Below, in pieces: positions 9,768-53,502 of a DNA stretch of 64,000 bases. The stretch spans positions 42,573 through 106,572 of IMG/VR virus record IMGVR_UViG_3300032132_000001; one strand, written 5' to 3'. The notes under the pieces were generated by a model. The model was not told the DNA's origin. It was given only the letters and a program-made list of their open reading frames with translations, and made no database searches. This DNA is from a virus. The position numbers and the translations under genes were made by a program. The first letter of the stretch is position 1; every line of letters begins with the position of its first letter.

Positions 9768-9771
9768 TGAC

Positions 9772-12004: not shown

Positions 12005-12011
12005 CCATATC

Positions 12012-12473: not shown

Positions 12474-12560
12474 TTCAACATGCCACGGCTCAGATCCTCA
12501 CCTCACCTTGCCGTTCCGAGCCGGGCCCTACCTAACCGAACCGCAACTTACCATACCACA

Positions 12561-12645: not shown

Positions 12646-12651
12646 TTATTC

Positions 12652-12984: not shown

Positions 12985-13080
12985 AGCCTTGTATCGTTTT
13001 GATGACCATTATGGTTTCCTTGCCGCACCTGTCCATGCCGAGCTACAACTAACCCCACCGGGCCGGACCGTACCATATGG

Positions 13081-13154
13081 TGGTCCCTGCTGGACTTGAA
13101 CCAGCGACCTCCACGATGTCAACGTGGCGCTCTAGCCAACTGAGCTAAGGGACC
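13081..13154 (-). tRNA. tRNA-Val (anticodon GAC)
   Basis: GGTCCCTTAGCTCAGTTGGCTAGAGCGCCACGTTGACATCGTGG...; loop TTGACAT. Confidence 0.85.
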
Positions 13155-13225
13155 AACAACCTTGCCTTTCCGTACCATTCCCATCCATGCCTCACCGCAC
13201 CTAGACGAGCCGTACCAAGCCAAAA

Positions 13226-13302
<77 letters not shown>

Positions 13303-13308
13303 TGTTAT

Positions 13309-13566
13309 CTAACAGGTGGACTTCGTTCCGTTCACGTTGATGCAATCTACAACTTCACACTCTTCTAGAAGTGCAACATCGGTATCTTCGACTCGGACCG
13401 ATACGATGCCCACTAGATCGAGGAAGTGATGCTTGTAGATTGGGATCGCTTTGTCATCTGCAAAAGCGAGAAACCTCTCCAGGTTGCGTCGGTTCAGTTC
13501 CTTCACCACTGTCTTATCCGGTGCTGATTCTACTCTCAGGTTGACCAGATAGTTGTACTCACTCAT
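13309..13566 (-). CDS. hypothetical protein
   Basis: track ORF trimmed to MSEYNYL start (ATG 13564-13566) preceded by GGAGAGGAGAGG. Confidence 0.4.
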   Translation of the reverse strand: MSEYNYLVNLRVESAPDKTVVKELNRRNLERFLAFADDKAIPIYKHHFLDLVGIVSVRVEDTDVALLEECEVVDCINVNGTKSTC

Positions 13567-13630
13567 CCTTGCCTCTCCTCTCCATGCGGCGCACCGCCTG
13601 TCCATGCTGCGCCTGACCAGGCCACGAAGG

Positions 13631-14179
13631 TTATCGTGTCTCTCCAAACGGAGATTGCATAGGACCCCTCTCCTCGGCAAGCTCAAGGATGGGAGTCCCA
13701 TTCATCACTTGTTTCAACATGCGGTCGTACAACACCATATAGACCGCAGCGCCCAGGTTCGCACAGTGGCGAATCGGGATCTTTACGAACCGATGGCAGT
13801 GCCTCATCATCGTGGATGAAATGCTGCCATCTTCTGGGCCAAACACGTACACCGGATTCTCTGGGTGTTCAAAGTCCGTGAGCAACTCAGAGTTATCCCT
13901 CAACTCGATTGCCACCGGGGTAGACCCCTGAGGGAATTGGTCGAAGGGGAAGTCGAACTGGATCATCTCCACGTCCTTGTATCCCTTCATCCTTTCTTCT
14001 CGTGGGAGCCGCTTCTTCCCGTCCAGCCGTACACGGTTGCCCGTCCACCAGAGTTGACTCAAGCCGAAGCAAGAACATGCCCTCAACGCAGCCCCGACGT
14101 TGTGGTCGTATTTTGGGTTGGTCAGGATGATAGCCGGGGTCTTTCCCACCGGCTTCATGTTCTTGCCGACTTGTTTCAT
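13631..14179 (-). CDS. SpoU/TrmH-family RNA 2'-O-methyltransferase (SPOUT)
   Basis: ILTNPKYDHNVGAALRACSCFG and YVFGPEDGSIS motifs of the TrmH family. Confidence 0.7.
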   Translation of the reverse strand: MKQVGKNMKPVGKTPAIILTNPKYDHNVGAALRACSCFGLSQLWWTGNRVRLDGKKRLPREERMKGYKDVEMIQFDFPFDQFPQGSTPVAIELRDNSELLTDFEHPENPVYVFGPEDGSISSTMMRHCHRFVKIPIRHCANLGAAVYMVLYDRMLKQVMNGTPILELAEERGPMQSPFGETR

Positions 14180-14188
14180 CTCATCATC

Positions 14189-14839
14189 CTATGCTGCGTT
14201 TGGGTGCTTGAACGGTTTCTCTACCAGTAGATCAACAAATTCCTTGATCTGCCTGGCAACCTTGCCTCTTGGTGCGATGCTGAAGCGTTCGAACGCTTCC
14301 TCCTTGATCCACTTGCGCAGATCGGAGGCGAACTCATCCGAGCGAGCTTTCCAGTCACATACCATTTCGGCTATATAAACCCTCGGCATCTGGTCGACGC
14401 CGCCCCAGTATTCTGGGTGGTGAGCATTGGTCTTGACGTGCTGACGATGAGCCAGCTTTAGCTGGTCACTTGTTGCATTCTCGTGCAAGCATTCCCACTC
14501 AATGCCATAGAACTTGGAGTTATCGTGGATGAGGGAGTTGGCAATCAGGATCCGTCCAAGGTCCGTTTCTCCTCTCTCAATCAGCGCCATGCCCAACTTG
14601 TGTGCGCCATCTTGCACGAGCTTGATATGGCGCACCACAGCGTTTAGGTATCGAAGCTCTTCTTTGAGAAGGTCGTCGGTCCTTCGTTCAGGCAAGGCTA
14701 CTTTCTTTTTCGCCGTTGCCTTCTTCTTAGACCCCTTCTCAGCTTTACTCTCTTCATCTGACACAGGATGTACTCCTAGGAAGACCTGGCTATCAGGAGC
14801 CAATTGACTATCTACGTGCTTCTTGTGGCTCACCGACAA
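14189..14839 (-). CDS. hypothetical protein (possible HD-like metal site)
   Basis: track ORF; SLIHDNSKF...HRQHVKTNAHHPEYW. Confidence 0.4.
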   Translation of the reverse strand: MSVSHKKHVDSQLAPDSQVFLGVHPVSDEESKAEKGSKKKATAKKKVALPERRTDDLLKEELRYLNAVVRHIKLVQDGAHKLGMALIERGETDLGRILIANSLIHDNSKFYGIEWECLHENATSDQLKLAHRQHVKTNAHHPEYWGGVDQMPRVYIAEMVCDWKARSDEFASDLRKWIKEEAFERFSIAPRGKVARQIKEFVDLLVEKPFKHPNAA

Positions 14840-15086
14840 CCCTGCAAATAGAGCATACCGTATCTTCGTCTAGCCGATACAACCGCTCGATCTTCTTAAG
14901 TATTCCGCAGAATGTGCACCTCTTCGCAGTGCGTTCATTTACGCCTACGCCTGAGATACACACACTGCATAGCTTGACCAGCCTGTTGACGTGGAGGTCT
15001 TCACGACTGTTCGTATAGAAGCCTAAGATCGTGTTGAAGTAACACTCTTGGGCGCCTTCACCCTCTTGGCATTTGAAGCAGAGCAT
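14808..15086 (-). CDS. Cys-rich hypothetical protein
   Basis: track ORF. Confidence 0.4.
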   Translation of the reverse strand: MLCFKCQEGEGAQECYFNTILGFYTNSREDLHVNRLVKLCSVCISGVGVNERTAKRCTFCGILKKIERLYRLDEDTVCSICRVVGEPQEARR

Positions 15087-15112
15087 TCGCGTCAGATACC
15101 GGGAGGGAGAGC

Positions 15113-15448
15113 TTAATGGCGCTCTCCGGGGGGAGTGGTGATGGTGACTATTCCTTTTACCAACGGTACCACGCCGTATGGGATCTTATATTCTGTAACG
15201 ACGACCTCGGTCACAGTGACCTCTACATTGTTGCAATATGCGTCCATTGCAGCTTTTGGGTCGTCATGTAGAACTGCTACTCCGTTCTCCTTCGGACCAG
15301 GCCCACGGTATACGACCATGAACTCACTGGTAAAGGACCCGGAGTGACCTTGGAAAATGTCTCCTCTTTTCATAGCTTCACATCCTCTCTTTTGATCTCG
15401 CCGTTGTGGAGTTGACCGAGGAGATATACAAGCTGCGACTCTGCGCAC
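15113..15448 (-). CDS. hypothetical protein
   Basis: track ORF, start uncertain. Confidence 0.35.
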   Translation of the reverse strand: MRRVAACISPRSTPQRRDQKRGCEAMKRGDIFQGHSGSFTSEFMVVYRGPGPKENGVAVLHDDPKAAMDAYCNNVEVTVTEVVVTEYKIPYGVVPLVKGIVTITTPPGERH

Positions 15449-15810
15449 ACCACTTGCTCGTTCTCACCGTTGGATGAATCCTCGATCTTCTTCTTGAGGA
15501 ATTGGGTGGCTGGAGATCCAACCCCAAACAGAGCTTTGGCCATCTTGAAGTGGTAGCCAAGTGTGGTCTTGGGATCTACCTTGTAGTTTGGACAGTTGGT
15601 TTTGTGACGACCACCTGTCATATGCATAATTGCCGCGCAGGTACAAGGAACCTCTTCCTCTTCTTTCATCTGGTCGAAGAGCTTCAGTTCCCTCTCCCAC
15701 CGCTCCAAATACCAGCGTAGTCTGCGACGAGCTTCCTTGTCGTGGAAGCTGTCACCAGAGAAAATGGCAGCGTCGATGATCTCAGCTGCTTCATAGGTGT
15801 CTGGTCTCAT
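15370..15810 (-). CDS. hypothetical protein
   Basis: track ORF. Confidence 0.45.
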   Translation of the reverse strand: MRPDTYEAAEIIDAAIFSGDSFHDKEARRRLRWYLERWERELKLFDQMKEEEEVPCTCAAIMHMTGGRHKTNCPNYKVDPKTTLGYHFKMAKALFGVGSPATQFLKKKIEDSSNGENEQVVCAESQLVYLLGQLHNGEIKREDVKL

Positions 15811-16079
15811 TCTTTCTCCATCTTTTGGTCTGTCCTACCGGTGATGTAGAGAGAACCGAGAGCATTGAAGAGCTTCTCGTTCAGGTTCTCTACCGCACGG
15901 ACATTCAACCACACTGGATCCTCCCACCCCTCGTAAGGATAAGGAACCCAAGGTCGAATCTGGACCCTTTTAGGTGTCACCTCCAGGATAACTCCCTGGA
16001 GGTGACGCTCACAATTCACATAAACCTCACCGTGTTTGCAGGCGAGGAGAATGTGACCGAGGACTCGTGGGTCGATCAT
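15807..16079 (-). CDS. hypothetical protein
   Basis: track ORF. Confidence 0.4.
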   Translation of the reverse strand: MIDPRVLGHILLACKHGEVYVNCERHLQGVILEVTPKRVQIRPWVPYPYEGWEDPVWLNVRAVENLNEKLFNALGSLYITGRTDQKMEKE

Positions 16080-16288
16080 TACCAGTCCGTTCCAGGAGGA
16101 CCCTCTTCGGGATCGATGGGTTCGTCCGCTTCGTAGTTGGGATTCTCGAAGATCTCTGGACGATACTTCTTCTTTTTCTCTTCTTCACAATCGTCACAGA
16201 TTCGGGAGCACTCAATCCCACGAGCGTCCTTCAGCCACCACGATTCTTTGCCAGAGCCACAAGGGCACGGTCTTGGTTTGTCGAACAT
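16079..16288 (-). CDS. small SEC-C-motif-like zinc-binding protein
   Basis: PCPCGSGKESWW...CDDCEEE. Confidence 0.45.
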   Translation of the reverse strand: MFDKPRPCPCGSGKESWWLKDARGIECSRICDDCEEEKKKKYRPEIFENPNYEADEPIDPEEGPPGTDW

Positions 16289-16428
16289 TGTCGGCGCTCA
16301 CTTACACTATTGCCGATGTCAGCGCTCACCGACATCGGTAAATAGAATATGGACATGATTATTGCCCATATGATTGTTTGTTTGATCTGTGTTGCTGCGC
16401 TGGTTTGCAACGAGGAGTTCTGGTACTC

Positions 16429-16881
16429 CTAGTCGTCGCTCCCAACATGCCACGGCTGGATTGTGAGCCGAAGCTTTCCGGCGACTTCAGTGTCAACCGG
16501 GCCGAGCAACGCAGAGACAGCAGCGAGCAGCCCCTCTTTCATATCGCTCACCGACAGTGATTTCGGGTCTGACAGCTCCCTTGCATGAACCACGATGGTG
16601 TCACGGCCTGATGGATGGCCGACAAAGAACGCACCATAGTCTGGAGTCAACAGGAAGTTGATCTCAGCGCGCTGCCCAGGCAGGGCGTTGGGGAAGAGGC
16701 GAGCCCACACTGCAGTGTACTCTGGAATGAAGTGGAGTACGAATTCGGTTATCTCCATCTCCTCGCACAAACCCTCAAGAATCTTCTTCAGTTCGACAGC
16801 TTTGTCGTTATTCTTGACGTTGTGTGGAGAGAGATAGGTTTGGATGTTCTGTGCTGGGTCTAGTTTGGTTTTTCGTCCCAT
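16429..16881 (-). CDS. hypothetical protein; 14-mer motif forms its last codons (PWHVGSDD)
   Basis: track ORF. Confidence 0.45.
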   Translation of the reverse strand: MGRKTKLDPAQNIQTYLSPHNVKNNDKAVELKKILEGLCEEMEITEFVLHFIPEYTAVWARLFPNALPGQRAEINFLLTPDYGAFFVGHPSGRDTIVVHARELSDPKSLSVSDMKEGLLAAVSALLGPVDTEVAGKLRLTIQPWHVGSDD

Positions 16882-16894
16882 TGGATTTCTCTTA

Positions 16895-16970
16895 TGGCTC
16901 CCCGAGCAGGACTTGAACCTGCGACATCCTGATTAACAGTCAGGCGCTCTACCAACTGAGCTATCGAGGA
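16895..16970 (-). tRNA. tRNA-Asn (anticodon GTT), CCA encoded
   Basis: TCCTCGATAGCTCAGTTGGTAGAGCGCCTGACTGTTAATCAGG...; loop CTGTTAA. Confidence 0.85.
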
Positions 16971-21317: not shown

Positions 21318-21923
21318 AGTCTCCAGTCTCCAAAAGGCGGGCTCGTCATTCCGTTTTGAATACGAGCAGCGGCTAGGAAATTTTCCTAGCCGAATCGGGC
21401 GGTACACACAGCATCAGAGAGCGTCCACTATCCCACTTGATGCCATATTGAATAAAATGACCACCCAGGTTTACGGGGTTTACGAAAGTCACCACTCCCT
21501 GGGTACCGATCGGGATCGGGTCTGGGTCATCGCGCATCGAGGTCATTTCGATGCGATCTCCTACTTGGAACATTCGGCCTCCAACATGCCACAGCTAATT
21601 GAGCAGCAATTGCTCGATCTCTTTGTGCAACTTGGGGTGCAATTTTGGATCGTTCCGGAGGATTTGCCACAAGAGGGCCTTTGGGACCTCGACGGTCTTC
21701 GATTTCCGCTTGCGATCCCGCTCTCGCTCAACAGCTTCGTCGTTCAGTCTCACCAGCGTCTGTAAATCGTGCATTAGTCCTTACCTCTCCTTACCTCTCC
21801 GCGCCAGTCCGAGCCTTGCGGTGCCTGGACTATCCAAACCATGCCGCGCCCTGCCCTTCTGAATACAAAGGCGGGGAGGTTTTACCCTCCCCGCCTCGCG
21901 GCACTTACGTACCGTTGCGGTTT

Positions 21924-33100: not shown

Positions 33101-33367
33101 CTAGTAGTAAGTGTGTCGCCATTCCTGACCACACCTACGACACCCGTGGGCTTCACCACCAGTGTCAGGCGTGCACCATGAATCGACGCACTCTACGTCG
33201 TGCCCTTTCCATCGACACGTCAAGTCCAAGACGCTAGACTTGACATAGGACCAGAGCCAGCTGAGGAAGATCACCGCTGTGTGCGGCGGATCCTTACCTT
33301 CTTGCCAGGCGTACTGATGCTCCGCCTGCTCCCAACTCCGCCAATCTTGACGGATCGCTTCCAACAT
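33101..33367 (-). CDS. Cys/His/Trp-rich hypothetical protein; start codon lies inside the 14-mer motif
   Basis: track ORF. Confidence 0.4.
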   Translation of the reverse strand: MLEAIRQDWRSWEQAEHQYAWQEGKDPPHTAVIFLSWLWSYVKSSVLDLTCRWKGHDVECVDSWCTPDTGGEAHGCRRCGQEWRHTYY

Positions 33368-33378
33368 GCCACACCTCG

Positions 33379-34970: not shown

Positions 34971-35266
34971 TACCAGACATCCTCGCTAAACAGACCAACA
35001 TGTGCGTTCATTTGGTCTTCTTTCTTCACTTGGCCGGCAAGGCGAGCCAGCCGTGCAGCTGGCTTTCTGCGGACGAAGTCGCCGGATTCGGTCAGGAACC
35101 CCTGTTCCCTGTTGATCGGGGGTTTAATCCCTTTCTCCGTCACCATCATGTGAACGATGTCGGCGTGACGAGCAGGAGCAGGAAGGGAATACACCACGCC
35201 ATCCTTCCACAGGATCGCTGCGGCGACGATCTTACCGTAGTCTTTTCTCATTGGCCCTCCCAACAT
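34970..35266 (-). CDS. hypothetical protein; ATG is the ATG of the 14-mer motif (MLGGPM...)
   Basis: track ORF. Confidence 0.45.
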   Translation of the reverse strand: MLGGPMRKDYGKIVAAAILWKDGVVYSLPAPARHADIVHMMVTEKGIKPPINREQGFLTESGDFVRRKPAARLARLAGQVKKEDQMNAHVGLFSEDVW

Positions 35267-35272
35267 GACACG

Positions 35273-37452: not shown

Positions 37453-38133
37453 CTAGCCGTGCGTTCTCTTCATCTTCGCCAGCGGCTCGCTGCCATGCTT
37501 CATCGGGTCGTTGAAGTTGGTGGTGTGTCCACCTTCTGGGTTGCGATCCCAAGCGATGCAGTGCCGGATGACGTCCCGAAGGTCGCACATCTTCTTGGCC
37601 TCGTCGGGGACTTCGGGACTGGCGATGCCATAGAAGGCTGATCCGAGAGTGGGGAAGACAATTCCCTTCAGCTCTGCAAGCAGATCATCGACTCGACGCC
37701 AATCGATAGCGCCGAACGAATCACCCCGAAGCATGCTTCGGTGACGCATGACTGCTGCGATTTCACCGAGCTGTCCCATCATCAACCGATAGTACAAGTC
37801 CAACGCCCGATTGATGACGTCACCCTGTGTGCCGGTGATGGTGAGCTGGTATTCGCCCACTTCTTTTGCCTTTCTCCGTGTTCTTGCCTTGGGCGAGCAA
37901 CCCCAAGCCTCTGGAGTCAGCAGTGCGAACTCCATGTTGTCGAAGACCTCATCTTCGACAACAGCCCTTTTCTCCCCGGTGGCGCGATTCTGGATCATCG
38001 CCTCACCACTGGTGATGTGCGATAGGACATCGTCCACACGCTCATCACCAGGTGGGATGTAGAACACACCATGAAGCAAGTGAGCAAGCAGCACTGATAC
38101 TTGTACTCTCTGCACCATCTTGGGTTCCGTCAT
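37453..38133 (-). CDS. hypothetical protein
   Basis: track ORF. Confidence 0.45.
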   Translation of the reverse strand: MTEPKMVQRVQVSVLLAHLLHGVFYIPPGDERVDDVLSHITSGEAMIQNRATGEKRAVVEDEVFDNMEFALLTPEAWGCSPKARTRRKAKEVGEYQLTITGTQGDVINRALDLYYRLMMGQLGEIAAVMRHRSMLRGDSFGAIDWRRVDDLLAELKGIVFPTLGSAFYGIASPEVPDEAKKMCDLRDVIRHCIAWDRNPEGGHTTNFNDPMKHGSEPLAKMKRTHG

Positions 38134-38357
38134 CGTCGGCCCCTATTCCTTTGGCGGTTCTTCTTGCTGAAGAGATCCTTCCTCTTCTGCTCTACCGCTC
38201 GACGGGACGCCGCAGCATCTAGCATCTTGCGATGCTCCTCACCCAATTGATACAACATCGGGCCGATACTGTGGAGCTTGGGGATGTGGTCGGCGAAGAT
38301 GTCGAGGGCTTGCTTATCCCTCTGTTGCCGATCCCTCGTCTGTCTTGGGGTTTCCAT
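38130..38357 (-). CDS. hypothetical basic protein
   Basis: track ORF. Confidence 0.35.
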   Translation of the reverse strand: METPRQTRDRQQRDKQALDIFADHIPKLHSIGPMLYQLGEEHRKMLDAAASRRAVEQKRKDLFSKKNRQRNRGRR

Positions 38358-38574
38358 CGATCACCTCGTAATAATCCAGGGCTCTGATGGCACCACCACC
38401 GTACCCTGCACAGCGGAATGCGTCAGCCACCGCTTTTCGCTCTGTCTCACCCCAGCCGGTGACCTCTTCGGTCTTTCCGTCTAGCCAGTGGAGCCTGAAC
38501 TTGTATTGTTCTACGGTGCGCTTGAGTCTGGCACCGCCCGGCTCCCCTGGCCACGGAGGTCGTCCTAGTGGCAT
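38314..38574 (-). CDS. hypothetical protein
   Basis: start moved to MPLGRPPW (ATG 38572-38574) behind AAGGAGGTG. Confidence 0.4.
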   Translation of the reverse strand: MPLGRPPWPGEPGGARLKRTVEQYKFRLHWLDGKTEEVTGWGETERKAVADAFRCAGYGGGAIRALDYYEVIDGNPKTDEGSATEG

Positions 38575-38657
38575 AGCCACCTCCTTGTTAGGATTCTGTT
38601 CCAACGCGGGCAAGCCCGCCCCCAAAGGGGCGGGCGAGCTTACCCAGCTAGGAAGGA

Positions 38658-39068
38658 CTAGATGCAGTCGGCTTCCGACACGTCCGCACCGCCGTCCTCG
38701 ATCCGCTCGACCGTAGCCGAGACGAGAGCGATCGGGGTGGCCTTGTAGACGCGCTTACCCTTCTTGCCACCGACGCCAATCTTCGCCGCCTTACGCATAC
38801 GATCCCAGGCCGTCTGACCGGCTTCGTCCTGGTGATGCCGCCAGATGCCGACATCCTGCATGCGGAGCGTCGCTTCCTTCTTGTCCTTGAACCGGACAAC
38901 GAGGAGCAGATGGAAGTTACCCGGACGCGAGCCCAGGTGACCCTTCGGCGAACCGGCCAGACGCAGCAACTCCTGCAGGTTACAAACCCGCATCTGCTTC
39001 TGATCGTGCTCGACGATAGCTTCGGTAGTGTCGAACTTCAGGAAACCAACAGTCTTCTTCGAAGGCAT
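38658..39068 (-). CDS. P-family paralog 4 (MPSKKTVGFLKF leader, HHQDEAG core, acidic tail)
   Basis: track ORF. Confidence 0.5.
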   Translation of the reverse strand: MPSKKTVGFLKFDTTEAIVEHDQKQMRVCNLQELLRLAGSPKGHLGSRPGNFHLLLVVRFKDKKEATLRMQDVGIWRHHQDEAGQTAWDRMRKAAKIGVGGKKGKRVYKATPIALVSATVERIEDGGADVSEADCI

Positions 39069-39266
39069 GGGAACTCCATGTTCTTAGGCGAAGAAGTCCT
39101 ACTGGAGGCGGGACCTCCCCGCCCAACCTAGCTTCCCCTGCTCAAGCTTGAGCGGGGATTTGTGTCCCACAACATGTGGGAGCACAACATTCGGCCGTGA
39201 GACCGAATGCTGTTGACATTGACACAACGCCGATCGACGAGTGCCTGTCAACATGCCACGAATGGC

Positions 39267-39342
39267 TGGCGGGTCATACGGGATTTGAACCCGCAACACA
39301 CGGTTTTAGAGACCGTTGCTCTACCAATTGAGCTAATGACCC
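39267..39342 (-). tRNA. amber-suppressor tRNA (anticodon CTA, reads UAG), class I, CCA encoded
   Basis: GGGTCATTAGCTCAATTGGTAGAGCAACGGTCTCTAAAACCGTGTGTTGCGGGTTCAAATCCCGTATGACCCGCCA; perfect 5-bp anticodon stem ACGGT/ACCGT, loop CTCTAAA. Confidence 0.75.
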
Positions 39343-39658
39343 AGGAGGAGTGGTGGACCTTTCTCATCAACCGAAGGTGAAGAGCCTAGGTTCACCCCCG
39401 ACGCGGATACTCGATTAAGTGGACCCCGTAGCAACGACGACACACCCCCACCACTCCTTGACTAAGAAGAAAGAAGAGCCGACCTTCAGGTGAGAAGACG
39501 TATAACAAACTTGTCCCCCTTTACCGGTCACTCACCCCGGCGATCAACCCAGAGCGGATCAGGAACTTAGGCGGGCTCGGACGTCTCCCTCGGCTCTTCC
39601 TTCCAATACGCCGCAGCCCGACCCCCATACAGCAGGGTCGGGCATTGGCTAGGAGTTG

Positions 39659-40528
39659 TTAGGCCGTCTTGCGACCCTTCTTCCCCTCACGCTTCTCGGC
39701 GGCGATGATCTCGAACGCCTCGTACAGCGCGTTCTTCTTCCGCGCCACCTTGCTGCGCTGTCGTGGCGGGCTCTCGATCTGCAGCAGGTGCCGCCAGCCG
39801 GCGGGGGTGAGTCCGCTTGCCGTGGGCTGTCCACTGCTGGGACGCTCGAACATGACGGGCATCTGTGCGGCCCGCGCGTCACGCCGCGCCTGCGCTTCCA
39901 CCTCACGCGCCTCGCGGCGCAGAGCGTCACGCTCCCGCTTCTTCTCCTGCCGGGACACGTCGTCCTCGGCCAGCCGCTTGGCCAGCATCGGCTTCGCGCC
40001 GCCGTGGTGGAGTCCGCGCTTGACGCACAGCTCCTTCAGCTTGCCGGTCGCGTCCTTCTCGTACCGCTTGGCGAACTTCGCCACCAGCTTCTGCCGCTTC
40101 CGCCGATCCTTCTCCTCCTGGCTGATGCCGGGACGGAAGAAGCGGTCGCAGTAGAACCGCAGCTGGCTGTCGGAGAGGGAGGCCGGTCCCCACCCCTTCG
40201 GTGCGTCTTCGACGTTGCAGAACAGCGTCCTCTTCAGCGCGGCGATCTTGTCGCTCTCCATGCGGAGCGCGAACAGGAGCGCCTTCCGCTCCAGCGGGTC
40301 GCCCTTCTTGACCGCCCGCACGCCCTGGACCAGGACGAGCTTCGCGATCTCCTTGGCGGCCTGGTTCTGGCCACTGGCCTTCTTCGCCTCGGCGATACGC
40401 TGCGCCTTCGACGGGCCGGTCTTCTGCGGAGCGGCCTGCTGGTTGCTCCGCTTCTTCCGACGCGCCTTCTTCCGCTCGCGACCCAGCTTTCCCTTCTCTG
40501 CGTGCTGCTTCTCGTTCTTCGACGACAT
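39659..40528 (-). CDS. highly basic Lys/Arg/Ala-rich hypothetical protein
   Basis: track ORF in locally GC-richer DNA; preferred over antisense ORF 39656..40582. Confidence 0.45.
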   Translation of the reverse strand: MSSKNEKQHAEKGKLGRERKKARRKKRSNQQAAPQKTGPSKAQRIAEAKKASGQNQAAKEIAKLVLVQGVRAVKKGDPLERKALLFALRMESDKIAALKRTLFCNVEDAPKGWGPASLSDSQLRFYCDRFFRPGISQEEKDRRKRQKLVAKFAKRYEKDATGKLKELCVKRGLHHGGAKPMLAKRLAEDDVSRQEKKRERDALRREAREVEAQARRDARAAQMPVMFERPSSGQPTASGLTPAGWRHLLQIESPPRQRSKVARKKNALYEAFEIIAAEKREGKKGRKTA

Positions 40529-40670
40529 GTCATTCCCCTGGTAGGGACTTCTCGGTTACAACGCCCACAGTTGGGCAATTGATTCATTGTTCGGTTGACC
40601 AGGGTTGGACACAGCACGCTTCCAACAGCTTGTATCCCGTCCCAACATGGGACGGGCACAAGCCAAGGAA

Positions 40671-40898
40671 CTAAACTTCGTATTCGAGGATGTCGATGGT
40701 GACGAGCCAGTTCCACGACTCACCACCTTCCCACGAACCTTCTTTCTCTTCAGTGAAGGTGAGATTGGTATCGTCTATCTCCTTCTGGACGATACCACGA
40801 GCCTCGGCAGGATCTCGGGTCACATCGACCACACGACCGTCACCACCATCGACGCCGTGGTTGTCCGATCGGTGGATGACGTAGACCTTCACTTCCAC
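40671..40898 (-). CDS. hypothetical acidic protein
   Basis: track ORF. Confidence 0.4.
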   Translation of the reverse strand: MEVKVYVIHRSDNHGVDGGDGRVVDVTRDPAEARGIVQKEIDDTNLTFTEEKEGSWEGGESWNWLVTIDILEYEV

Positions 40899-41167
40899 GG
40901 CCGGGAGTACGGCTGTGCCGGATCGTATTCCGGATTGGGTTCGGGGATTCGAAGCTCACCGATCCTCTCGTACGCCGTGTCCTCGACCAAGCACGACAGC
41001 CGGTGGATCTGCCAGCTGAGGTAGTCGAACGGCCTGGTGAGCCAGTACGACGCCTCTTGGACGAGCCGGCTGGCCCGATCCAGAGTGAGGACGATCAGTT
41101 GCCAGAACAGGCGGTACCGCTGCTTGCTGGGGTTCATTGAACCCTCCTTGTAGGGGTTTCGTTCCAA
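40889..41167 (-). CDS. hypothetical protein (likely start MNPSKQRYR at 41137)
   Basis: track ORF; AAGGAGGG RBS. Confidence 0.4.
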   Translation of the reverse strand: MERNPYKEGSMNPSKQRYRLFWQLIVLTLDRASRLVQEASYWLTRPFDYLSWQIHRLSCLVEDTAYERIGELRIPEPNPEYDPAQPYSRPWK

Positions 41168-41216
41168 CAGGGCTTATCCCGCTCCCTGGTGGGAGCGGGC
41201 ATCACCCTTGAGATTC

Positions 41217-41609
41217 TTAGCCGGCGAGAACCTCATCGATCTCACGTTCCAGCTCCTTCTGAGCCAGCACCGCCGCGTAGACCTCGCTGTGGTACTCGTC
41301 CCGCAGCACCATCGGTGCGTCCGGGTTGAGTGCCAGCTCGATCTTGCTGACGATGTGGTCGTGGGGATCCTCGCCGAAGAGATCGTCGGCGATAGCCTTG
41401 GCGGTGAAGAGGCGCATCTCGTCCACCGGGACGGTCCCGTTGACCGGGAACTCACGGCGCTGGACCGTCTTCCCCTTGGCCCTGACCTCGATGCCGACGA
41501 GATCGCCGTAGGTCGTCTTGGGTGACTGACACGAGAACCTCTCGGGCGTGATCAGAGCGATCACGTAGCCGAGGAATCGCATGCCGGCACCAGTCTTGGG
41601 GTTACGCAT
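41217..41609 (-). CDS. hypothetical protein; 9-codon upstream ORF beginning at motif ATG
   Basis: track ORF. Confidence 0.45.
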   Translation of the reverse strand: MRNPKTGAGMRFLGYVIALITPERFSCQSPKTTYGDLVGIEVRAKGKTVQRREFPVNGTVPVDEMRLFTAKAIADDLFGEDPHDHIVSKIELALNPDAPMVLRDEYHSEVYAAVLAQKELEREIDEVLAG

Positions 41610-41743
41610 AGAACAAACACTCCTGGGTCTAAGTTACGTGCAGATGGACACAACGCCCAACATGTCACGCTAATGGGACCAAGGCAAGCCTTGGCCTCGC
41701 CACCTGTGTGAGTTAGGAGCGAACACAGGATCGCTCGTCCAGA

Positions 41744-42058
41744 TCAGTCGTCATGTGGACCCATTCTGGACTGATGGGATGGTTCTGACTCAGGCAGTTT
41801 GGGTTTCACCAACCTCGCCTTGAGTCTGTCGATTCCGATCCTGCCACAGGCTCGGATGCAACCCTTGCACCCGCAGCAGTTCACCGCTTCTCGCATCCCA
41901 GTTGGGCGATGGAGAAGACGGACAACCCCTCGGGCAGGGTGATTGCACCCCGGTGCCGCGCAGACAGGTCTCGGTTTCAGCGTCGGTCCGTTGATGCAGT
42001 AGGAGTTGGCGGGGACCGGCAAGACCGCCAACAAGCACAATACGATCAGTTTCTTCAT
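41744..42058 (-). CDS. secreted Cys-rich protein with signal peptide
   Basis: MKKLIVLCLLAVLPVPANS followed by many Cys; start moved to ATG 42056-42058 behind GGAGGTG. Confidence 0.5.
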   Translation of the reverse strand: MKKLIVLCLLAVLPVPANSYCINGPTLKPRPVCAAPGCNHPARGVVRLLHRPTGMREAVNCCGCKGCIRACGRIGIDRLKARLVKPKLPESEPSHQSRMGPHDD

Positions 42059-42254
42059 GGTCACCTCCAACAGGCTAAATCCCGCCCCCTGATGGGGGCG
42101 GGCAGATCAGTTTAGCCGTTGATCCATGACTTGGCGGATACGATCTCTCTTCTTTCTGATCTCACCGCCTTGCTTGAGCGCCTTGCGGATCGCCTCCTCA
42201 TCGTAGAGACAGAGGAGGAGACCGCTCGGCATCGCAACCACGATCATTCTCATC

Positions 42255-42497
42255 TCACTCTCCTTTGCAGCGGAAGGGGATCTTGGAGCAACCGAAGAGT
42301 ACGTTGCCGAAGATCAGGTACCAGTGGAGCCCGTCCTTGACAGCCGAGTTCAGCATGATCCCAACCAGCGTGTCGGCGCACATGGAGTTGGTTTTCCCTC
42401 CACCGTCTCCGTTGTCGTAGTAGGCGGTCAAGTGGTGGCCGATGCTATCCTTGATCTCGGCCACAGTTGACACCCCACTGTGCAGCTCGCGGCTCAT
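42255..42497 (-). CDS. hypothetical protein
   Basis: track ORF. Confidence 0.35.
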   Translation of the reverse strand: MSRELHSGVSTVAEIKDSIGHHLTAYYDNGDGGGKTNSMCADTLVGIMLNSAVKDGLHWYLIFGNVLFGCSKIPFRCKGE

Positions 42498-42928
42498 GCT
42501 TCCGCCCCGATCAGCTTACCGTCGAGATGGTCCATCTCGTGCTGCATCACCCTGGCTTCCCACGGTGACTGGGACTGGTGCCGCTTCTTCCGTCCCTTGG
42601 AGTCCTCGTACTCGATGAGGACGATGGGGAAGCGCAACACCTTGACGGCCCTGTCGGGGAGGGAGAGGCAGCCTTCGATGGCGTACTCCCGCTTGCCCCT
42701 GGCCCTGTGCAACACAGGGTTGAAGAAGACGCGTTCCATCCCCTTCACCCCACTGGCGTTCATCACGAAGAACCGCCGAGTGATGCCAACCTGCGGTGCG
42801 GCCAGACCAGCTCCGTTCGCCGCATACATCAGGCCGATCATCTCACGGACGGTATCGTCGTGGACGCTTGGATCCGCATGGGAGCACACTTGCTCCAGCA
42901 CAGGATCCGGATGGATGACGATTTTCAT
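42494..42928 (-). CDS. def: peptide deformylase
   Basis: GxGLAAPQVG, EGCLSLP and HEMDHL motifs; start MKIVIHPD at 42926-42928 behind GGAGG. Confidence 0.85.
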   Translation of the reverse strand: MKIVIHPDPVLEQVCSHADPSVHDDTVREMIGLMYAANGAGLAAPQVGITRRFFVMNASGVKGMERVFFNPVLHRARGKREYAIEGCLSLPDRAVKVLRFPIVLIEYEDSKGRKKRHQSQSPWEARVMQHEMDHLDGKLIGAEA

Positions 42929-43006
42929 CCTGGATTCCTCCTGTAGAGTCCTTTTCCAACAGGCTAAACCCCGTCCCAACATGGGACGGGCTTCAACCCT
43001 TGCCGA

Positions 43007-43663
43007 CTAGATCCTGATGCCATAGTCCTGAGTTTTGGTCATCAGGTAGATCTTGTGGGCGATGGACGCTGCTTGGCCCCAGAGATGCCTGTGGAGCGCT
43101 TCCCAGTCGGTCGTGTCGCTGCGCCGGATCGGGATTTCCAGCAGGACGTTCTCACCCTCGTACATGAGGATCTTGGCCGTGATGTTGTCGGGGAGGGAGT
43201 CTTCCTCATATCCCAACTGGATCAAGTGCTTGTCGGCCACTGCGAACCGAGTACACTGGAGTGGCGGTTCGCAGAACTGAGGGGTGGGGAGGCCGAGTGA
43301 CTTGCTGTACATCTGGGACAGCCCTCGGGCAAGCACGATGTCCGGAGACACCCCACCGCAGCCGTAGCCGTAGTACAAGCCGACCCTTTCCCAGCCGTTC
43401 GGCTGTTCCACTTCCGGCATGTCGAGGTACTTGCGGCAGACGTTGACGATATGGAGAAGCTTGAGCCGACGCTTACGCCGACGTTCCCCACCCCATCGTC
43501 CCCCTTCCACGGCCACCGTGCAGACCGCGTACCACTGGTACGTCTTCTTGAGTTCGTTCTGGAGCTTGGTGGTGAACCAAGTCAGGATCGCCAGCACCTT
43601 ATAGGGCGCGGTTCCTGCTGGCACGAACTGGTGTTGGTAAAGGTGTTGGCGTAGCACAGCCAT
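43007..43663 (-). CDS. hypothetical protein
   Basis: track ORF trimmed to MAVLRQ (ATG 43661-43663). Confidence 0.45.
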   Translation of the reverse strand: MAVLRQHLYQHQFVPAGTAPYKVLAILTWFTTKLQNELKKTYQWYAVCTVAVEGGRWGGERRRKRRLKLLHIVNVCRKYLDMPEVEQPNGWERVGLYYGYGCGGVSPDIVLARGLSQMYSKSLGLPTPQFCEPPLQCTRFAVADKHLIQLGYEEDSLPDNITAKILMYEGENVLLEIPIRRSDTTDWEALHRHLWGQAASIAHKIYLMTKTQDYGIRI

Positions 43664-43723
43664 ACCCCCGGATAGAAAAGTTGTCAACTACGCGATGCCC
43701 GACCCAGGGGGTCGGGCAACACG

Positions 43724-43969
43724 CTACCGAGTGGGGGAGAGACCTCTCTTGGTCTTGGAGCCGTACTCCAGCTTGAAGTGCCTCTCCAGAGCCGAGCCCA
43801 GGAGGCACATCTCGTCGCCCCAGGAGGCATCCGTCTGCACGGACCGAGCTTCCAGCAGGGCCAACTTCACCTCTGCCAGGACCTTAGCCAGGTCCTTTTC
43901 CACCCAGGAGTGTCCTCCACGGACGAAGCGCGCCAGAATGCACGCCAGTTTCATCGCGTCGTCCATCAT
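43724..43969 (-). CDS. hypothetical protein
   Basis: track ORF. Confidence 0.4.
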   Translation of the reverse strand: MMDDAMKLACILARFVRGGHSWVEKDLAKVLAEVKLALLEARSVQTDASWGDEMCLLGSALERHFKLEYGSKTKRGLSPTR

Positions 43970-44043
43970 TCATCCTTCCGTTATAGAAGTGTTCCAACAG
44001 GCCATAGCCCGTCCCCAACATGGGACGGGCAATGACCTTACTG

Positions 44044-44250
44044 CTAGCCGAGCTTGATGAAGGTGAATCCCCAATCGGGGAGCTGGTCGGCGCAGGGCTC
44101 GCTACGCGTCGAAACCTCATCCTTGGAGGGAAGAGGGCCGTGCACCTTCTTGTCGTACTGCGTCCATCCCCGGCCAACCCACCGGGAGCAGACGCCGCTG
44201 GCCAACTCCCAGCGGCACACCATGACGTGGAGGACTTGGATGATGTCCAT
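44044..44250 (-). CDS. hypothetical protein
   Basis: track ORF. Confidence 0.35.
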   Translation of the reverse strand: MDIIQVLHVMVCRWELASGVCSRWVGRGWTQYDKKVHGPLPSKDEVSTRSEPCADQLPDWGFTFIKLG

Positions 44251-44251
44251 C

Positions 44252-44920
44252 TTAGACCCTCGTCAGCTTGGCGTCATCGGCGCTGGTGCCGGTGTACTGG
44301 TACGGCGACTTGTTGAAGCGGTACGGACCGTGGCCGAAAGCCCACGATTGCCGCTCCCAGAAGCCCTCGACCTCGTCCCAGAAGAGATCCGTCTGCACTT
44401 CCTTGCAGTACGCACCTTCCTGGTTGAGGATGAACATCGCCTTCACCGGGCCCTCGTAGACCACGCCGGGATGATTGAGATCGATCCACTTGGCGTTGTA
44501 GAGGATCTTGGCTCGCCACAGGTTGGTGTTGAACTCCCTGGCGATTTCCCTCGTGGCGATGCGGAACTGGCAGTCGATGCACGCCGTGTAGATCGACTCC
44601 CCGATCATCTGGAAGTATTCCACTTCCTTCCCGCAGCAGACGATCCGGCTTCCGGCCTGTAACTTCCACATCAGCTCGGAACGTTCGTCGTAGGCTCGGA
44701 GATCGGACTGTGTTGCACCGGGACCGCACACCCAGTCGTGCATATTACAGCCACCTGGGCCGTTACGGGGCTGAGCCGCCAGATCCTTCCGACCCTGTTG
44801 GAGCTTGTCCGCTATCTCGCCCACCCTGGACAGGTCCAACTGGTCCCGTCGCAACAGGTAATCGGGCATCGGACCCGTCCCCAGCACCCAGAGGATGAGT
44901 GCCATGCTTCTCTCGAACAT
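44252..44920 (-). CDS. hypothetical protein
   Basis: track ORF. Confidence 0.45.
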   Translation of the reverse strand: MFERSMALILWVLGTGPMPDYLLRRDQLDLSRVGEIADKLQQGRKDLAAQPRNGPGGCNMHDWVCGPGATQSDLRAYDERSELMWKLQAGSRIVCCGKEVEYFQMIGESIYTACIDCQFRIATREIAREFNTNLWRAKILYNAKWIDLNHPGVVYEGPVKAMFILNQEGAYCKEVQTDLFWDEVEGFWERQSWAFGHGPYRFNKSPYQYTGTSADDAKLTRV

Positions 44921-45006
44921 CTTTCATCTCCTTTGGATGAGTTCTGTGTCAACTACGCTAAACCCGATCCCGCCAACATGGCACGGGATCGGGCAAGCGC
45001 AACAGA

Positions 45007-45207
45007 TCAGATGAACTCGGGTACATCGGAGGGGTCAGGGAGTTGGATCCGCTGGGGATCGATGAGGAGGATCTTGTGGTCGATCTTCCTCTCTTTCTCC
45101 AGCTGAGCTTCCACGGCACACAGTCGGACGTGGAGGTAGATGATGACGCCACCGAGCACGGCGACCACCATCAGGAGGATCAGTTGATCCACGATTTTGA
45201 GCTTCAT
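45007..45207 (-). CDS. small membrane protein
   Basis: track ORF with TM helix. Confidence 0.4.
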   Translation of the reverse strand: MKLKIVDQLILLMVVAVLGGVIIYLHVRLCAVEAQLEKERKIDHKILLIDPQRIQLPDPSDVPEFI

Positions 45208-45404
45208 CCGGTCATCTCCAGACGGGGTTGGAGGTAGATGGGTTGAGTGATCTTGCCGGTCTTCCGGAGTTCAGCAACCTCCTTGATGATCTCAGAAGAT
45301 CTCAAGTCGATTTCCGGCTCGAAGAGGTTCCAGCACTTATCACTCAGCGGCCGGTCCTGGTCGGGATTCCTCAACCCCATGACCCATGGGACTTGTGCGT
45401 GCAT
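45204..45404 (-). CDS. hypothetical protein
   Basis: track ORF. Confidence 0.35.
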   Translation of the reverse strand: MHAQVPWVMGLRNPDQDRPLSDKCWNLFEPEIDLRSSEIIKEVAELRKTGKITQPIYLQPRLEMTG

Positions 45405-45881
45405 TTGCGATCTCCTTTCTTCGCAGTCGTGTCAACAGTCTGAAACCCGCCCCCGGAGGGGCGGGCTGCCTTTATCGGCAAATCAAACTATCGAGTCATC
45501 ACGCCTCCCTGACCTCACCGTCCTGCGCAGAAGGATGCTGGTCGCCAACTTAATGCTGCCCGTTCCACATCGCATGGAACGACACCAATCTGACACAGGA
45601 CGCAAGATCCGAAGAGAAGGTTCTAGTATTGTCAACTCCAAGAATCCCGTCCCCAACAAAGGGGACGGGCAGGAGAAGCCTACTTCCAGACGCCGATTGA
45701 CTGGAGGATGATGCTGGCGATCACGATCGGCCCATAAGCCAACGCCGCGTACAAGCAGTACACGGGAAGGATGGGGACCAACATCAGGTATGACAGGATA
45801 CGCATTCGCAACCTCGGTTCACTAGAGAGTTATCTCGGACAACAGCTCTTATCCCGCCCCCAGGAGAGGGCGGGCAATCTA

Positions 45882-46187
45882 TCACGGCGTTGGGGGAACG
45901 TGGAGCTTCTCTGCCTCTTTCTTCAGCAGGTCCAGCATCTGACCGTGCAGCTGCTGCCCCATCCTGGTCCCCTGCAGCACCTCCAAGCAGTTCACTTCGG
46001 GGGCACCCAGGAGGCGGTAGAGTCGGTTGAAGATCAGAGCAACTTCATCCGACTCGAAGTGCTCGACGCTGACGAGATAGTGGTCCAACCACTCCCACAG
46101 CTCCCGGGTTCCCTTCATCACCATCGTCCGTGCGAATTGCAGCCGCAGCGGCTCGTGGGTGAGAAGAGAGGTTAGTACCATTAGCAT
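45882..46187 (-). CDS. hypothetical protein
   Basis: track ORF. Confidence 0.4.
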   Translation of the reverse strand: MLMVLTSLLTHEPLRLQFARTMVMKGTRELWEWLDHYLVSVEHFESDEVALIFNRLYRLLGAPEVNCLEVLQGTRMGQQLHGQMLDLLKKEAEKLHVPPTP

Positions 46188-47107
46188 CTGCCCCTCCTGA
46201 GCAAAGAGATGTTGAGCTTCTTACTGATAGCTCTGTCAACAGCATAAAGCCCGCCCTCCAAAAAGGAGGGCGGGCCACCATTCACCTAAAAACAAGCACC
46301 CGCCACAGATTCATTATGGCAGCAGCTGTCCCCGTGGGCGGGCAATTGGGTGACAACCTTCACGCTGCAACTCTGGCGGTTCAAACCGCGTCGGTCTACA
46401 TGACGTCTCCTCGCTTTACGCTTAGGGTGCTAGTTGACAACTGGTTGAATCCCGACCCCATAAAGGAGTCGGGCGTTACCCATGTTAGACAGGTTGGATT
46501 TGGTGGGAAGTTGAATGTGTTTGGAGCTTATGGGGGAGGAGGGGGAGAGATCGGCCTCTCCGTCTTTTTCCTTGCCCTTCCCCGCTTGACAAGAGTCCAT
46601 TACAATACCTGACCACCGGTTGAGTACCAGGAAAGCAGGGAGAGCAAAGGAGAGGGCAGGAGAGCTGGTATCTTCGGGAACCCGAAAACCTCTGCGCGGG
46701 GCAATGGCTCCTATCTGTGACCTAATATTGAGCCTCGCACTGTCCCCCACTCTTATGCAAAAGGGGTCTACCCCTCTCTTCAGTGCACTCGTGTGATATT
46801 CGAGCACCCACTGAGTGTTGACAGTACATTGAGCTTCGCCCTTCTTCTCCACAGGATCCCTCATATCCCCAACATGACACGCGCATTCCTCCCTGGGGGA
46901 ACAATCTCAATGTGACCTAGTGGGCTAAGTCCCTAGTTGACTATTGCTCCACCCGTAAGGGCGTTAGTTAACAGGCACTTATCAGCGCCTTATCAACCTA
47001 ATATTGGAGGAGGGACTTGACACTAGACCGAGCAAACATTGACTCACCCACTCCTATATGAGCCCGGTTTGAGTCAGGTAGGGTCTGACTGACAATCTAT
47101 AGAAAAA

Positions 47108-47136
47108 GGCCCGCCCCCACATAGTAGGGGCGGGCC
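47108..47136. terminator. GC-rich palindromic hairpin GGCCCGCCCC-n9-GGGGCGGGCC (one of about 13 similar units)
   Basis: read directly; others at about 38614-38635, 39135-39157, 40636-40656, 41178-41199, 42081-42102, 42970-42990, 43697-43717, 44008-44029, 44963-44993, 45446-45465, 45646-45669, 45853-45874, 46249-46275. Confidence 0.6.
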
Positions 47137-47163
47137 TCGGGTACTGCGGTCGCTAGGGGTCTC

Positions 47164-47523
47164 CTAGATGTCCAGCTCGTCGGCCTCGGCGGCGAGGATG
47201 GCGTCGGCCAGGTCGCTCGGGGCGACGGCCTTGACCTCGACGAACTTCAGCTGGAAGCGCGACTTCTTCACCTTGGCCAGGATGTCCTGGGTGGCCTGGG
47301 GCTGGTGAGAGAGGACGAGCGTACCCGTGCTGGTGAGGTGGAACACGGTGCCCTTGTCCGTCTTGCAGACCAGGGCCACGCACTCGCGGCCGTCACGGGA
47401 CTTGTCCTTGTTGGCGACGCGCTTGCCCTTCGGGGCCTTCGCCTGGACGGCAGCGCCGTTCTCGATGCTGTAGGCCAGGGCGTCGGACGTGAGGGACAGG
47501 AGGATGCGGAGGGCGGTCTTCAT
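47164..47523 (-). CDS. P-family paralog 5 (divergent; acidic AAEADELDI tail); last minus-strand gene before strand switch
   Basis: track ORF with AAGGAAAGGA RBS. Confidence 0.45.
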   Translation of the reverse strand: MKTALRILLSLTSDALAYSIENGAAVQAKAPKGKRVANKDKSRDGRECVALVCKTDKGTVFHLTSTGTLVLSHQPQATQDILAKVKKSRFQLKFVEVKAVAPSDLADAILAAEADELDI

Positions 47524-47546
47524 GGTGTACAGTCCTTTCCTTGTAC

Positions 47547-47700
47547 GGGGGACCGTCCCCTTTTAGGGGGACTAGTCCCCCTAGCGATAAACATACTATC
47601 CACGGCGGGACACTCCCCCCCACAGATGGGTGGGGGGGCCCGCCGCCCGCCCCCCGGCAACGGGCGGGGGCGCGCCCCCGGCGGGGAGGACCTGGTTACC
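47547..47700. promoter_or_regulatory. divergent intergenic region with three near-perfect G/C palindromes and G-tracts (bidirectional promoter and/or replication-associated element)
   Basis: GGGGACCGTCCCC, 18-bp AGGGGGACTAGTCCCCCT, and CCCCCCCAC-n6-GTGGGGGGG, followed by GGGCGGGGGCGCGCCCCCGGCGGGG. Confidence 0.45.
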
Positions 47701-47768
47701 AGCTCTCCAGCGCGACAATATATTCCTCACGCGGGGCCCTTCCATATCTTCCTTCGTATTTCAGCCAC

Positions 47769-48062
47769 ATGGAAGCTCGCGGCACACGGTGGATGGTAGA
47801 AGAGGAAAGAGAGGTATTAAGGACCGTACCTTGGAACGAAGACTTGTGCAGCCCAGACTTCAACCCAGCTGGGCTACTGATAAGCATGCATAGGGAGGGA
47901 CATAGGTCTGAATACTTCTTCATAGACCCAGAAACCACAGTCTGGCGGTTAGGAGTATATTACGACGACCCAGGCCAACGTGCATGGCACTGGAAGAAAC
48001 TCTACGTAGTAAACGCACGCTGGCAGAAAAGAATCCGCCAAGACGTCGCAGAGATACTATGA
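47769..48062 (+). CDS. DP-motif small protein family member (LCSPDFNPAGLLISM)
   Basis: ATG 47769 inside track ORF 47541..48062. Confidence 0.5.
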   Translation: MEARGTRWMVEEEREVLRTVPWNEDLCSPDFNPAGLLISMHREGHRSEYFFIDPETTVWRLGVYYDDPGQRAWHWKKLYVVNARWQKRIRQDVAEIL

Positions 48063-53170: not shown

Positions 53171-53502
53171 GTGGAAAATTCCAGTGGGGTTTCTTGTACA
53201 AGATAGAAGAGGGCGATTACGATCTTGTCGGGGTCCCATTCACAGCACAAGAGCATCACGACCCCTCTTTCAACCCCACCGGTATCATAGTTACTATGAT
53301 AGTGCACGAACGCAGAGACTTAGGAGCCGTGGGAAGAGAGCCTAAGCGTTTCTACGTGCACACGGACAGCCAGAGAGTATTGGAAGCACACATGTATGGT
53401 GGTAAGATCGGCGGAAACGAATACCACTACAAGCTCACCGGTCTAGAACTATTAGATGAGGACCGCCAGGGTATCTTAGACATTATTCAGGATCTCTTGT
53501 AA
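53167..53502 (+). CDS. DP-motif family member (HHDPSFNPTGIIVTMIV)
   Basis: track ORF. Confidence 0.5.
   Translation: MSGKFQWGFLYKIEEGDYDLVGVPFTAQEHHDPSFNPTGIIVTMIVHERRDLGAVGREPKRFYVHTDSQRVLEAHMYGGKIGGNEYHYKLTGLELLDEDRQGILDIIQDLL

Follow-up and report, generated by a model that had tools for sequence, protein, structure and literature searches.

In phage regulatory switches, such as OR of lambda between cI and cro, tandem palindromic operators with a common half-site lie about two helical turns apart. Classical phage replication origins have iterons and an AT-rich region, as in lambda, or R-loops, as at oriF and oriG of T4. In T4-like phages, promoter-early stem-loops (PeSLs) join a repeated intergenic G/C-rich stem-loop able to terminate transcription to a short conserved motif and a full sigma-70 promoter (-35, -10 and AT-rich upstream sequence), and small orphan genes are deleted or inserted by recombination between such repeated stem-loop cassettes (PMC2839356, PMC4122927). 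Approximately 30% of huge phage genomes have skew patterns that suggest bidirectional replication (PMC7162821). Here we compare with these systems a strand-switch locus at positions 46188-47768 of a 64-kb window (the whole stretch analyzed, 64,000 nucleotides of IMG/VR record IMGVR_UViG_3300032132_000001), which is part of a 397-kb contig from a genome that we read as that of a huge phage. The locus consists of a gene desert (46188-47163), a gene for a protein of 119 amino acids (aa) and a divergent interval (47524-47768). We tentatively consider it, at a little under an even chance, to be a divergent control region together with an untranslated, signal-punctuated spacer, set between two divergent blocks of small genes that have no known relatives.

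The desert is 976 bp long, is the largest non-coding gap of the window, and has stops in every frame of its six-frame translation. Coding potential was scored as the codon-usage log-likelihood per codon, trained on the long genes of the window. The best sliding-window score in any frame of the desert was at most 0.07 per codon, versus 0.25-0.36 in the flanking genes. The longest open reading frames (ORFs) in the desert, one of 98 aa (plus strand) and one of 144 aa (minus strand), scored -0.007 and 0.031, respectively, like spurious ORFs, and found only themselves among 5.8 billion proteins. In addition, two public gene callers or annotations placed the desert ORF on opposite strands. The desert is non-coding, and the gene desert of about 1 kb reported by an earlier first-pass annotation of this DNA is real, as coding signal was seen in no frame.

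Two further candidates were rejected. Recoding of a stop codon, by reassignment of either TAG or TGA, opened no frame in the desert despite the presence in the window of a tRNA with a CTA anticodon (39267-39342). For a pseudogene remnant there was one weak tblastx match, of 46749-46898 (minus strand) to a gene at 10380-10718 (E = 0.023). We rejected this reading because a profile from the best 150 of 690 family representatives matched the real gene only and nothing in the desert.

The divergent interval contains three palindromes in 133 bp, compared to 58 in the whole 64 kb and 0.12 expected from the window density. Its features are as follows:

47548-47560: 13-bp palindrome, GGGGAC-C-GTCCCC
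47564-47583: perfect 20-bp palindrome, TAGGGGGACTAGTCCCCCTA
47603-47690: GC-rich hairpin cluster, comprising a 16-bp bulged hairpin (47603-47645, arms C7/G7), a unit-like hairpin (47645-47671) and the 16-bp palindrome
47665-47680: perfect 16-bp palindrome, CGGGGGCGCGCCCCCG
47696-47724, plus strand: the sole sigma-70-like match, TTACCA-17 nt-TATATT, directed rightward and at chance level

The palindrome cluster is not due to chance. Three perfect or near-perfect palindromes had been noted here before, and they are both real and clustered, although the longest perfect one is 20 bp rather than the 18 bp originally given. The palindromes at 47547-47583 are arranged in tandem, and the 119-aa gene has its ribosome-binding site directly downstream of them. 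They present four GGGGGAC half-sites, their centers are 19.5 bp apart (approximately two helical turns), and 3 of the 9 GGGGGAC copies in the window fall within 35 bp at this site. As DNA, the tandem pair folds with a z-score of -3.9. The perfect palindromes are symmetric through their centers (CTAG and GCGC), unlike the looped hairpins of terminator type, and recognition at the level of DNA, by a dimeric protein, is therefore favored. As read from their sequence, the GGGGGAC palindromes could be operators for a dimeric DNA-binding regulator or, equally, stabilizing hairpins in the 5' untranslated region (5'-UTR) of the leftward mRNA.

Palindromes with a common half-site and helical phasing between diverging genes are the layout of an operator pair, and tandem palindromes between divergent genes are what the locus has in common with switches of the lambda OR type. 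The likeness is in layout only. The present locus has no recognizable helix-turn-helix or other DNA-binding gene beside it, its half-sites are G/C-rich, there are two sites only, and its promoters are putative. Furthermore, unlike the lambda operators, its palindromes would, once transcribed, double as hairpins in the 5'-UTR of the leftward mRNA. Long palindromes, perfect or nearly so, were also observed elsewhere in the window, at 14282-14299 (18 bp), 21370-21392 (23 bp) and 53283-53301 (19 bp).

Adjoining the tandem palindromes, the 80 bp at 47615-47694 are 88% GC, which is the window maximum (the next highest value is 78%). This cluster of alternative hairpins would separate the two transcription units and may act as an insulator, a terminator or a supercoil-absorbing cruciform. 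It had been suggested that runs of 7-9 G or C in this interval could form a G-quadruplex. We do not believe this to be the case, as the runs are 7 nt long and pair as the arms of one hairpin, and no canonical motif (four tracts of at least three G, loops of at most 12 nt) occurs in 47524-47768, where long-loop versions only were seen.

The desert contains a series of signals and compositional tracts:

46233-46275, minus strand: hairpin unit, consisting of GCCCGCCCTCC-5 nt-GGAGGGCGGGC (46249-46275, perfect 11-bp stem), TTTATGCT and GTTGACAG (46240 down to 46233)
46288-46342, minus strand: another hairpin of terminator type, which has UGCUUGUUUUU as its tail and stands in tandem with the 46249-46275 unit (scan match 46322..46300, and by folding)
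46434-46473, minus strand: hairpin unit, consisting of CCCGACTCC-5 nt-GGGGTCGGG (46451-46473), ATTCAACCA and GTTGTCAA (46441 down to 46434)
46491-46551, plus strand: C-poor, G-rich tract that includes GGGGGAGGAGGGGGAGAG, with 1 C in 60 nt
46542-46571, plus strand: the sole plus-strand terminator-like hairpin of the desert, GGGGAGAGATCGGCCTCTCC then GTCTTTTTCC (terminator scan)
46554-46668, no strand assigned: pyrimidine tract (46554-46583), then the most purine-rich 40-mer of the window (46629-46668)
46586, 46818, 46937, 47017 and 47039 (span 46586-47044), plus strand: five TTGAC(A/T) hexamers
46868-46881, minus strand: desert copy of a 14-mer, CGTGTCATGTTGGG, whose ATG opens MLGI and then a stop
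47106-47138, minus strand: strong intrinsic terminator of the 119-aa gene, a 15-bp stem with 11 G-C pairs and a TTTTCTATAG tail, then ATTGTCAG

The hairpin at 47106-47138 had been described as a terminator that closes the desert. It is a real terminator (15 pairs, then a T-run), but as a minus-strand element that terminates the 119-aa gene it opens the desert in the direction of transcription.

The hairpin units belong to a family defined by a GC hairpin (CCCGNCCC-loop-GGGNCGGG), a spacer of about 9 nt ((A/T)TTnnnnCT) and the motif GTTG(G/A/T)NA. All 13 units are on the minus strand, between 38605 and 46473, with two inside the desert and none in the right arm. Within the 38-47 kb block they occupy the gaps between small genes, and a start codon often follows about 25 nt later. 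The desert unit at 46434-46473 aligns with the unit at 45619-45670 (75% over 52 nt). Elsewhere the minus-strand signals separate small genes; in the desert, what lies between them is non-coding sequence, of 630 and 175 nt.

Like PeSLs, these units are strand-specific, are concentrated among small orphan genes and are a plausible substrate for the gain and loss of cassettes. A stem-loop of the PeSL kind was found in the 13 minus-strand units and in the 47106-47138 terminator, and in none of the right arm. However, where a PeSL has its full sigma-70 promoter, the present units have only GTTG(G/A/T)NA 9 nt past the hairpin, and this motif is often about 25 nt from the start codon, which is too close for a -35 box. 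In addition, the present phage is not T4-like and its desert units flank no genes. We have not filed the units as PeSLs because the sigma-70 promoter that defines those elements is absent from them.

A second minus-strand family is the 14-mer, with the consensus CGTG(N)CATGTTGG(G/A). At up to two mismatches it has 20 copies in the window versus 1.4 expected. All 20 are on the minus strand and in the left arm only (window 3820-46881), and of the 19 occurrences of the core CATGTTGG every one is on the minus strand. The copy that the first-pass annotation had placed in the desert was borne out at 46868-46881. A phage-specific signal for start, processing or recognition is a possible role of the 14-mer.

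Examples of the 14-mer outside the desert are at 12474-12487, 33360-33373, 35259-35272 and 39247-39260. At gene junctions its ATG is the start codon at 35266 and at 33367. Other copies are found inside the genes for a CCA-adding enzyme and a PARG-like protein. The 14-mer also abuts the 5' side of tRNA-Leu(gag), occurs 7 nt beyond the 3' end of the suppressor tRNA, and is the core of three GC hairpins (CGTCCCATGTTGGGACG).

The remaining desert features are compositional. The single C in 60 nt (46491-46550) is the window minimum for C, the next-lowest 60-nt stretch having 4. The run near 46490-46560 that had been called G-poor is instead C-poor and G-rich on the plus strand. The pyrimidine and purine tracts at 46554-46668 are imperfectly complementary (inverted repeat I2), and both copies of GGAGGAGGG in the window are within the desert. 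The GC and AT skews of the 632-bp desert core are near zero (-0.015 and -0.01, respectively), unlike those of all the flanking genes. A degenerate unit-like copy, a weak hairpin then AGTCAACTAG, is found near 46925-46960. In addition, a 21-nt inverted repeat (18/21 matching; 46239-46259 and 47508-47528) brackets the desert and the 119-aa gene. It could be the product of chance, as one arm is in a recurrent hairpin, or the mark of an inserted segment.

The plus strand of the desert is enriched for TTGAC (6 versus 0.68 expected) and TGACA (7 versus 0.64 expected), and the other strand has none. A sixth TTGAC(A/T), at 46434, is the hairpin-unit motif read in reverse. Two explanations for the hexamers were tried and rejected. 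Sigma-70 promoters at the TTGACA hexamers had no -10 box at usable spacing, either by eye or by scan, and for iterons or a repeat unit of about 100 nt, Tandem Repeats Finder and an alignment of six units showed only the TTGAC core, with 44% column identity.

Based on these features, we propose that this non-coding DNA lies inside the leftward transcription unit and has kept the ordinary minus-strand punctuation. Leftward transcription would meet, in order, the terminator of the 119-aa gene, the 14-mer, a hairpin and GTTGNNA unit, the tandem terminator with the second unit, and the ribosome-binding site of the next gene. The desert may be transcribed as an untranslated leader or as short non-coding transcripts of about 0.4 kb and about 0.2 kb, or it may represent the remains of lost cassettes. 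The regulatory hub for divergent transcription that the first-pass annotation listed among its candidates is the best fit to the diverging genes, the tandem palindromes and the concentration of punctuation signals. Because no promoter consensus was established, transcription from the locus, protein binding and a regulatory role are properties that we infer.

Several results weigh against this reading of the locus as a divergent control region and spacer. No promoter was identified: sigma-70-type sites were enriched in neither arm and were at or below chance in both (2 versus 4.5 expected, and 15 versus 19.9 expected). The hairpin units had no conserved -10 element after GTTGNNA, and because of this and the sigma-70 counts they are not callable as promoters. 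No DNA-binding protein was recognizable beside the palindromes, as the flanking proteins had no Pfam, PHROGs, PADLOC or PDB match. The one-stranded enrichment of TTGAC(A/T) is left unexplained by a control region. Finally, INPHARED, IMG/VR, the protein database and the metagenome contigs contained no related genome with which to compare the elements.

A different explanation for the strand switch is that the locus is a bidirectional replication origin from which forks leave along the two diverging gene blocks. As first noted, polarity and base composition do flip here, with gene polarity, GC content and skews all changing. Minus-strand genes run from at least 10 kb left of the window to 47523, and genes are mostly on the plus strand from 47769 to at least 71 kb. 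An origin would be consistent with a divergence of genes that extends leftward for at least 57 kb and rightward for about 24 kb, with the status of the locus as the largest non-coding region, one of extreme local structure, and with a cumulative GC-skew minimum at 46.2-47.2 kb (81 kb of the 397 kb read). The skew patterns of huge phages, which often suggest bidirectional replication (PMC7162821), also counted in its favor. The cumulative skew, which had been proposed as a check, thus did have its minimum at the locus over those 81 kb, but the flip stems from codon position 1, at which left-arm genes have a plus-strand skew of -0.15 to -0.24 and right-arm genes one of +0.21. For third positions on the same strand, the left arm gives +0.004 to +0.055 and the right arm -0.066, a polarity that is wrong for an origin. 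Moreover, of the 8 minus-strand genes that the right arm contains, every one has negative skew (pooled, -0.094 versus +0.042 in their plus-strand neighbors), and therefore the composition flip is a coding-strand effect, explained without replication. There was no cluster of DnaA boxes (15 versus 11.4 expected), no iterons or tandem or dispersed extended repeats were found, an AT-rich unwinding element was absent (the lowest value being 38% GC over 40 bp), and no replication genes were recognizable nearby. The locus resembles skew-defined huge-phage origins (PMC7162821) in being intergenic, at a local cumulative GC-skew minimum and between diverging genes. It differs from these and from classical origins in that its skew comes from codon position 1, not from strand mutational bias, and in having no iterons, AT-rich element or grouped DnaA boxes. 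Together, these data do not support the origin proposed in the first-pass annotation, and we regard it as very unlikely.

The desert could instead encode one or more functional non-coding RNAs, for example a minus-strand RNA that begins at the 14-mer (46875), stops at the 46451-46473 hairpin and measures about 0.4 kb, or a G-rich plus-strand RNA, about 100 nt long, whose end is set by the 46542-46571 terminator. The minus-strand terminator-like hairpins that bound the stretch, the 14-mer copy at a plausible start point, the extreme compositional tracts and the restriction of GGAGGAGGG to the desert would all be in keeping with such RNAs. However, Rfam 15 gave no match at its gathering score other than tRNAs elsewhere in the window, and its matches in 45800-47900 were below threshold and driven by terminator hairpins. 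The 625-nt core (46476-47100) folds like its shuffles (z = -1.34 for the minus strand and -1.21 for the plus strand), in agreement with sliding-window folding, most of the CCUCC tract in the minus-strand RNA is paired in the predicted fold, a promoter role for the 14-mer is putative only, and there are no relatives that would allow covariation. The structured non-coding RNA suggested earlier is not supported by the Rfam and folding results, and we judge functional non-coding RNAs in general to be unlikely. An “anti-Shine-Dalgarno sponge” RNA was rejected, as CCTCC is not enriched and the tract is predicted to be mostly paired. Clearly unlikely, and with support from the layout of the sequence only, is the pair of possibilities that the desert is a dedicated trans-acting RNA locus, driven by the 14-mer at 46868-46881 as a phage-specific start signal, or an unconventional origin that uses GC-rich cruciforms. 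The former would produce a largely unstructured minus-strand RNA of about 0.4 kb, with a G-depleted, C-rich tract containing CCUCC, that ends at 46451-46473 and acts in trans on, for example, the adjoining Shine-Dalgarno-dependent early gene block; the latter would function without DnaA boxes and without an AT-rich element. It is rather unlikely, in our view, that the desert is decayed DNA, in which gene cassettes between hairpin units were lost or degraded to leave the signals and a functionless neutral spacer. Signals bracketing gene-free stretches, the near-zero skews of the 632-bp core (-0.015 and -0.01), the lack of excess RNA structure in the core and the degenerate copy near 46925-46960 would fit decay, and we counted for it the recombination between stem-loop cassettes of T4-like phages (PMC2839356, PMC4122927). 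However, no residual protein similarity was detected (the weak tblastx match, E = 0.023, was not reproduced by the 150-member profile), 1 kb of useless DNA is rarely kept in a phage genome, and neither compositional extremes nor one-stranded TTGAC enrichment is expected of neutral sequence. Lastly, the GC-rich palindrome cluster, a highly structured non-coding segment that heads an apparent early gene block, might be a packaging or genome-end site (cos, pac or a terminal-repeat junction), packaging being among the roles that the first-pass annotation had suggested for the locus. We consider this highly improbable, as no terminase gene is nearby and two independent assemblies cross the locus with identical sequence.

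The genes that flank the desert and the divergent interval are as follows:

45882-46187, minus strand: first gene left of the desert, 101 aa, codon score 0.253 per codon, strong Shine-Dalgarno sequence caGGAGGggcagATG
47164-47523, minus strand: first leftward gene, 119 aa, codon score 0.357 per codon
47769-48062, plus strand: probable first rightward gene, 97 aa, codon score 0.14 per codon, no Shine-Dalgarno sequence, stop overlapping the next ATG (ATGA)

The 101-aa protein has no known relatives and no Pfam, PHROGs or PADLOC match. The 119-aa gene is 67% GC, with a GC skew opposite to that of the other left-arm genes. A search of the protein database with its product returned only itself, and the structure model was unusable (pLDDT 40). 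The first-pass annotation had labelled this protein “paralog 5”, a label that we have dropped, as the protein has no detectable paralog in the window and no homologue in any collection searched. The 97-aa gene was not called by a public gene caller.

The two arms differ in more than gene polarity. Strong Shine-Dalgarno sequences precede 65% of the genes at 38-47.6 kb, 22-31% of those further left and 17% of those in the right arm, the last value being that of random sequence. Similarly, third-position GC is 0.785 in the 38-47.6 kb block, 0.60-0.67 further left and 0.527 in the right arm, and the 38000-47600 block as a whole is 59.5% GC. This contrast points either to translation being initiated under two regimes in a single phage or to a block that differs in origin or expression class. 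The right arm has a recurring plus-strand motif, GGGTCCCATCG, which was observed at 48444, 49442, 50463 and 55022 (and 53231); four copies are exact, and two of these come shortly before gene starts. As a motif of the divergent interval it was rejected, since it has no copy there.

The window contains ten tRNA genes, including the one with the CTA anticodon (suppressor), and encodes a CCA-adding enzyme, a T4-type RNA ligase, a Thg1-like enzyme and a PARG-like protein. The suppressor tRNA (amber; labelled Pyl by ARAGORN) is on the minus strand, and the genes around it read normally in the standard code. The tRNA-related gene set is dense at 2095-16970 and 6378-37277. It also includes a metallophosphatase and a PTH2-type peptidyl-tRNA hydrolase, the CCA-adding enzyme has an HD domain, and the Thg1-like enzyme is a guanylyltransferase. 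Radical SAM proteins are encoded directly left of the window.

Searches for relatives covered several collections. No DNA match to the window was found in the 50,697 phage records of INPHARED by megablast and blastn, and no related genome was found in IMG/VR by protein search or by DNA-pattern search. The metagenome contigs gave two chance matches only. In the protein database (5.8 billion proteins), neither the desert ORFs nor the 119-aa protein had a relative beyond self-matches. The closest protein relatives of the CCA-adding enzyme are 34-51% identical, and IMG/VR contigs that carry this enzyme at 39-51% identity have no further gene order in common with the window. A second assembly of the same phage is 100% identical. 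As no relative was present in any collection searched, all our functional statements on the locus are drawn from its layout.

These findings bear on how the genomes of huge phages are read. A textbook-like V in GC skew at a strand switch can arise wholly from codon position 1, and such a V in a huge phage should not be read as an origin without a control from third positions or from wrong-strand genes. If our reading of the locus as a divergent control region and spacer is correct, the element itself would be of an ordinary kind, and the unusual part would be the genome that hosts it, that of a huge phage without sequenced relatives. The analysis has exposed signals of the phage's own, namely the 14-mer confined to the left arm, the hairpin and GTTGNNA units, and arms that differ in Shine-Dalgarno use and third-position GC. 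These signals are a starting point for mapping the transcription program of this phage.

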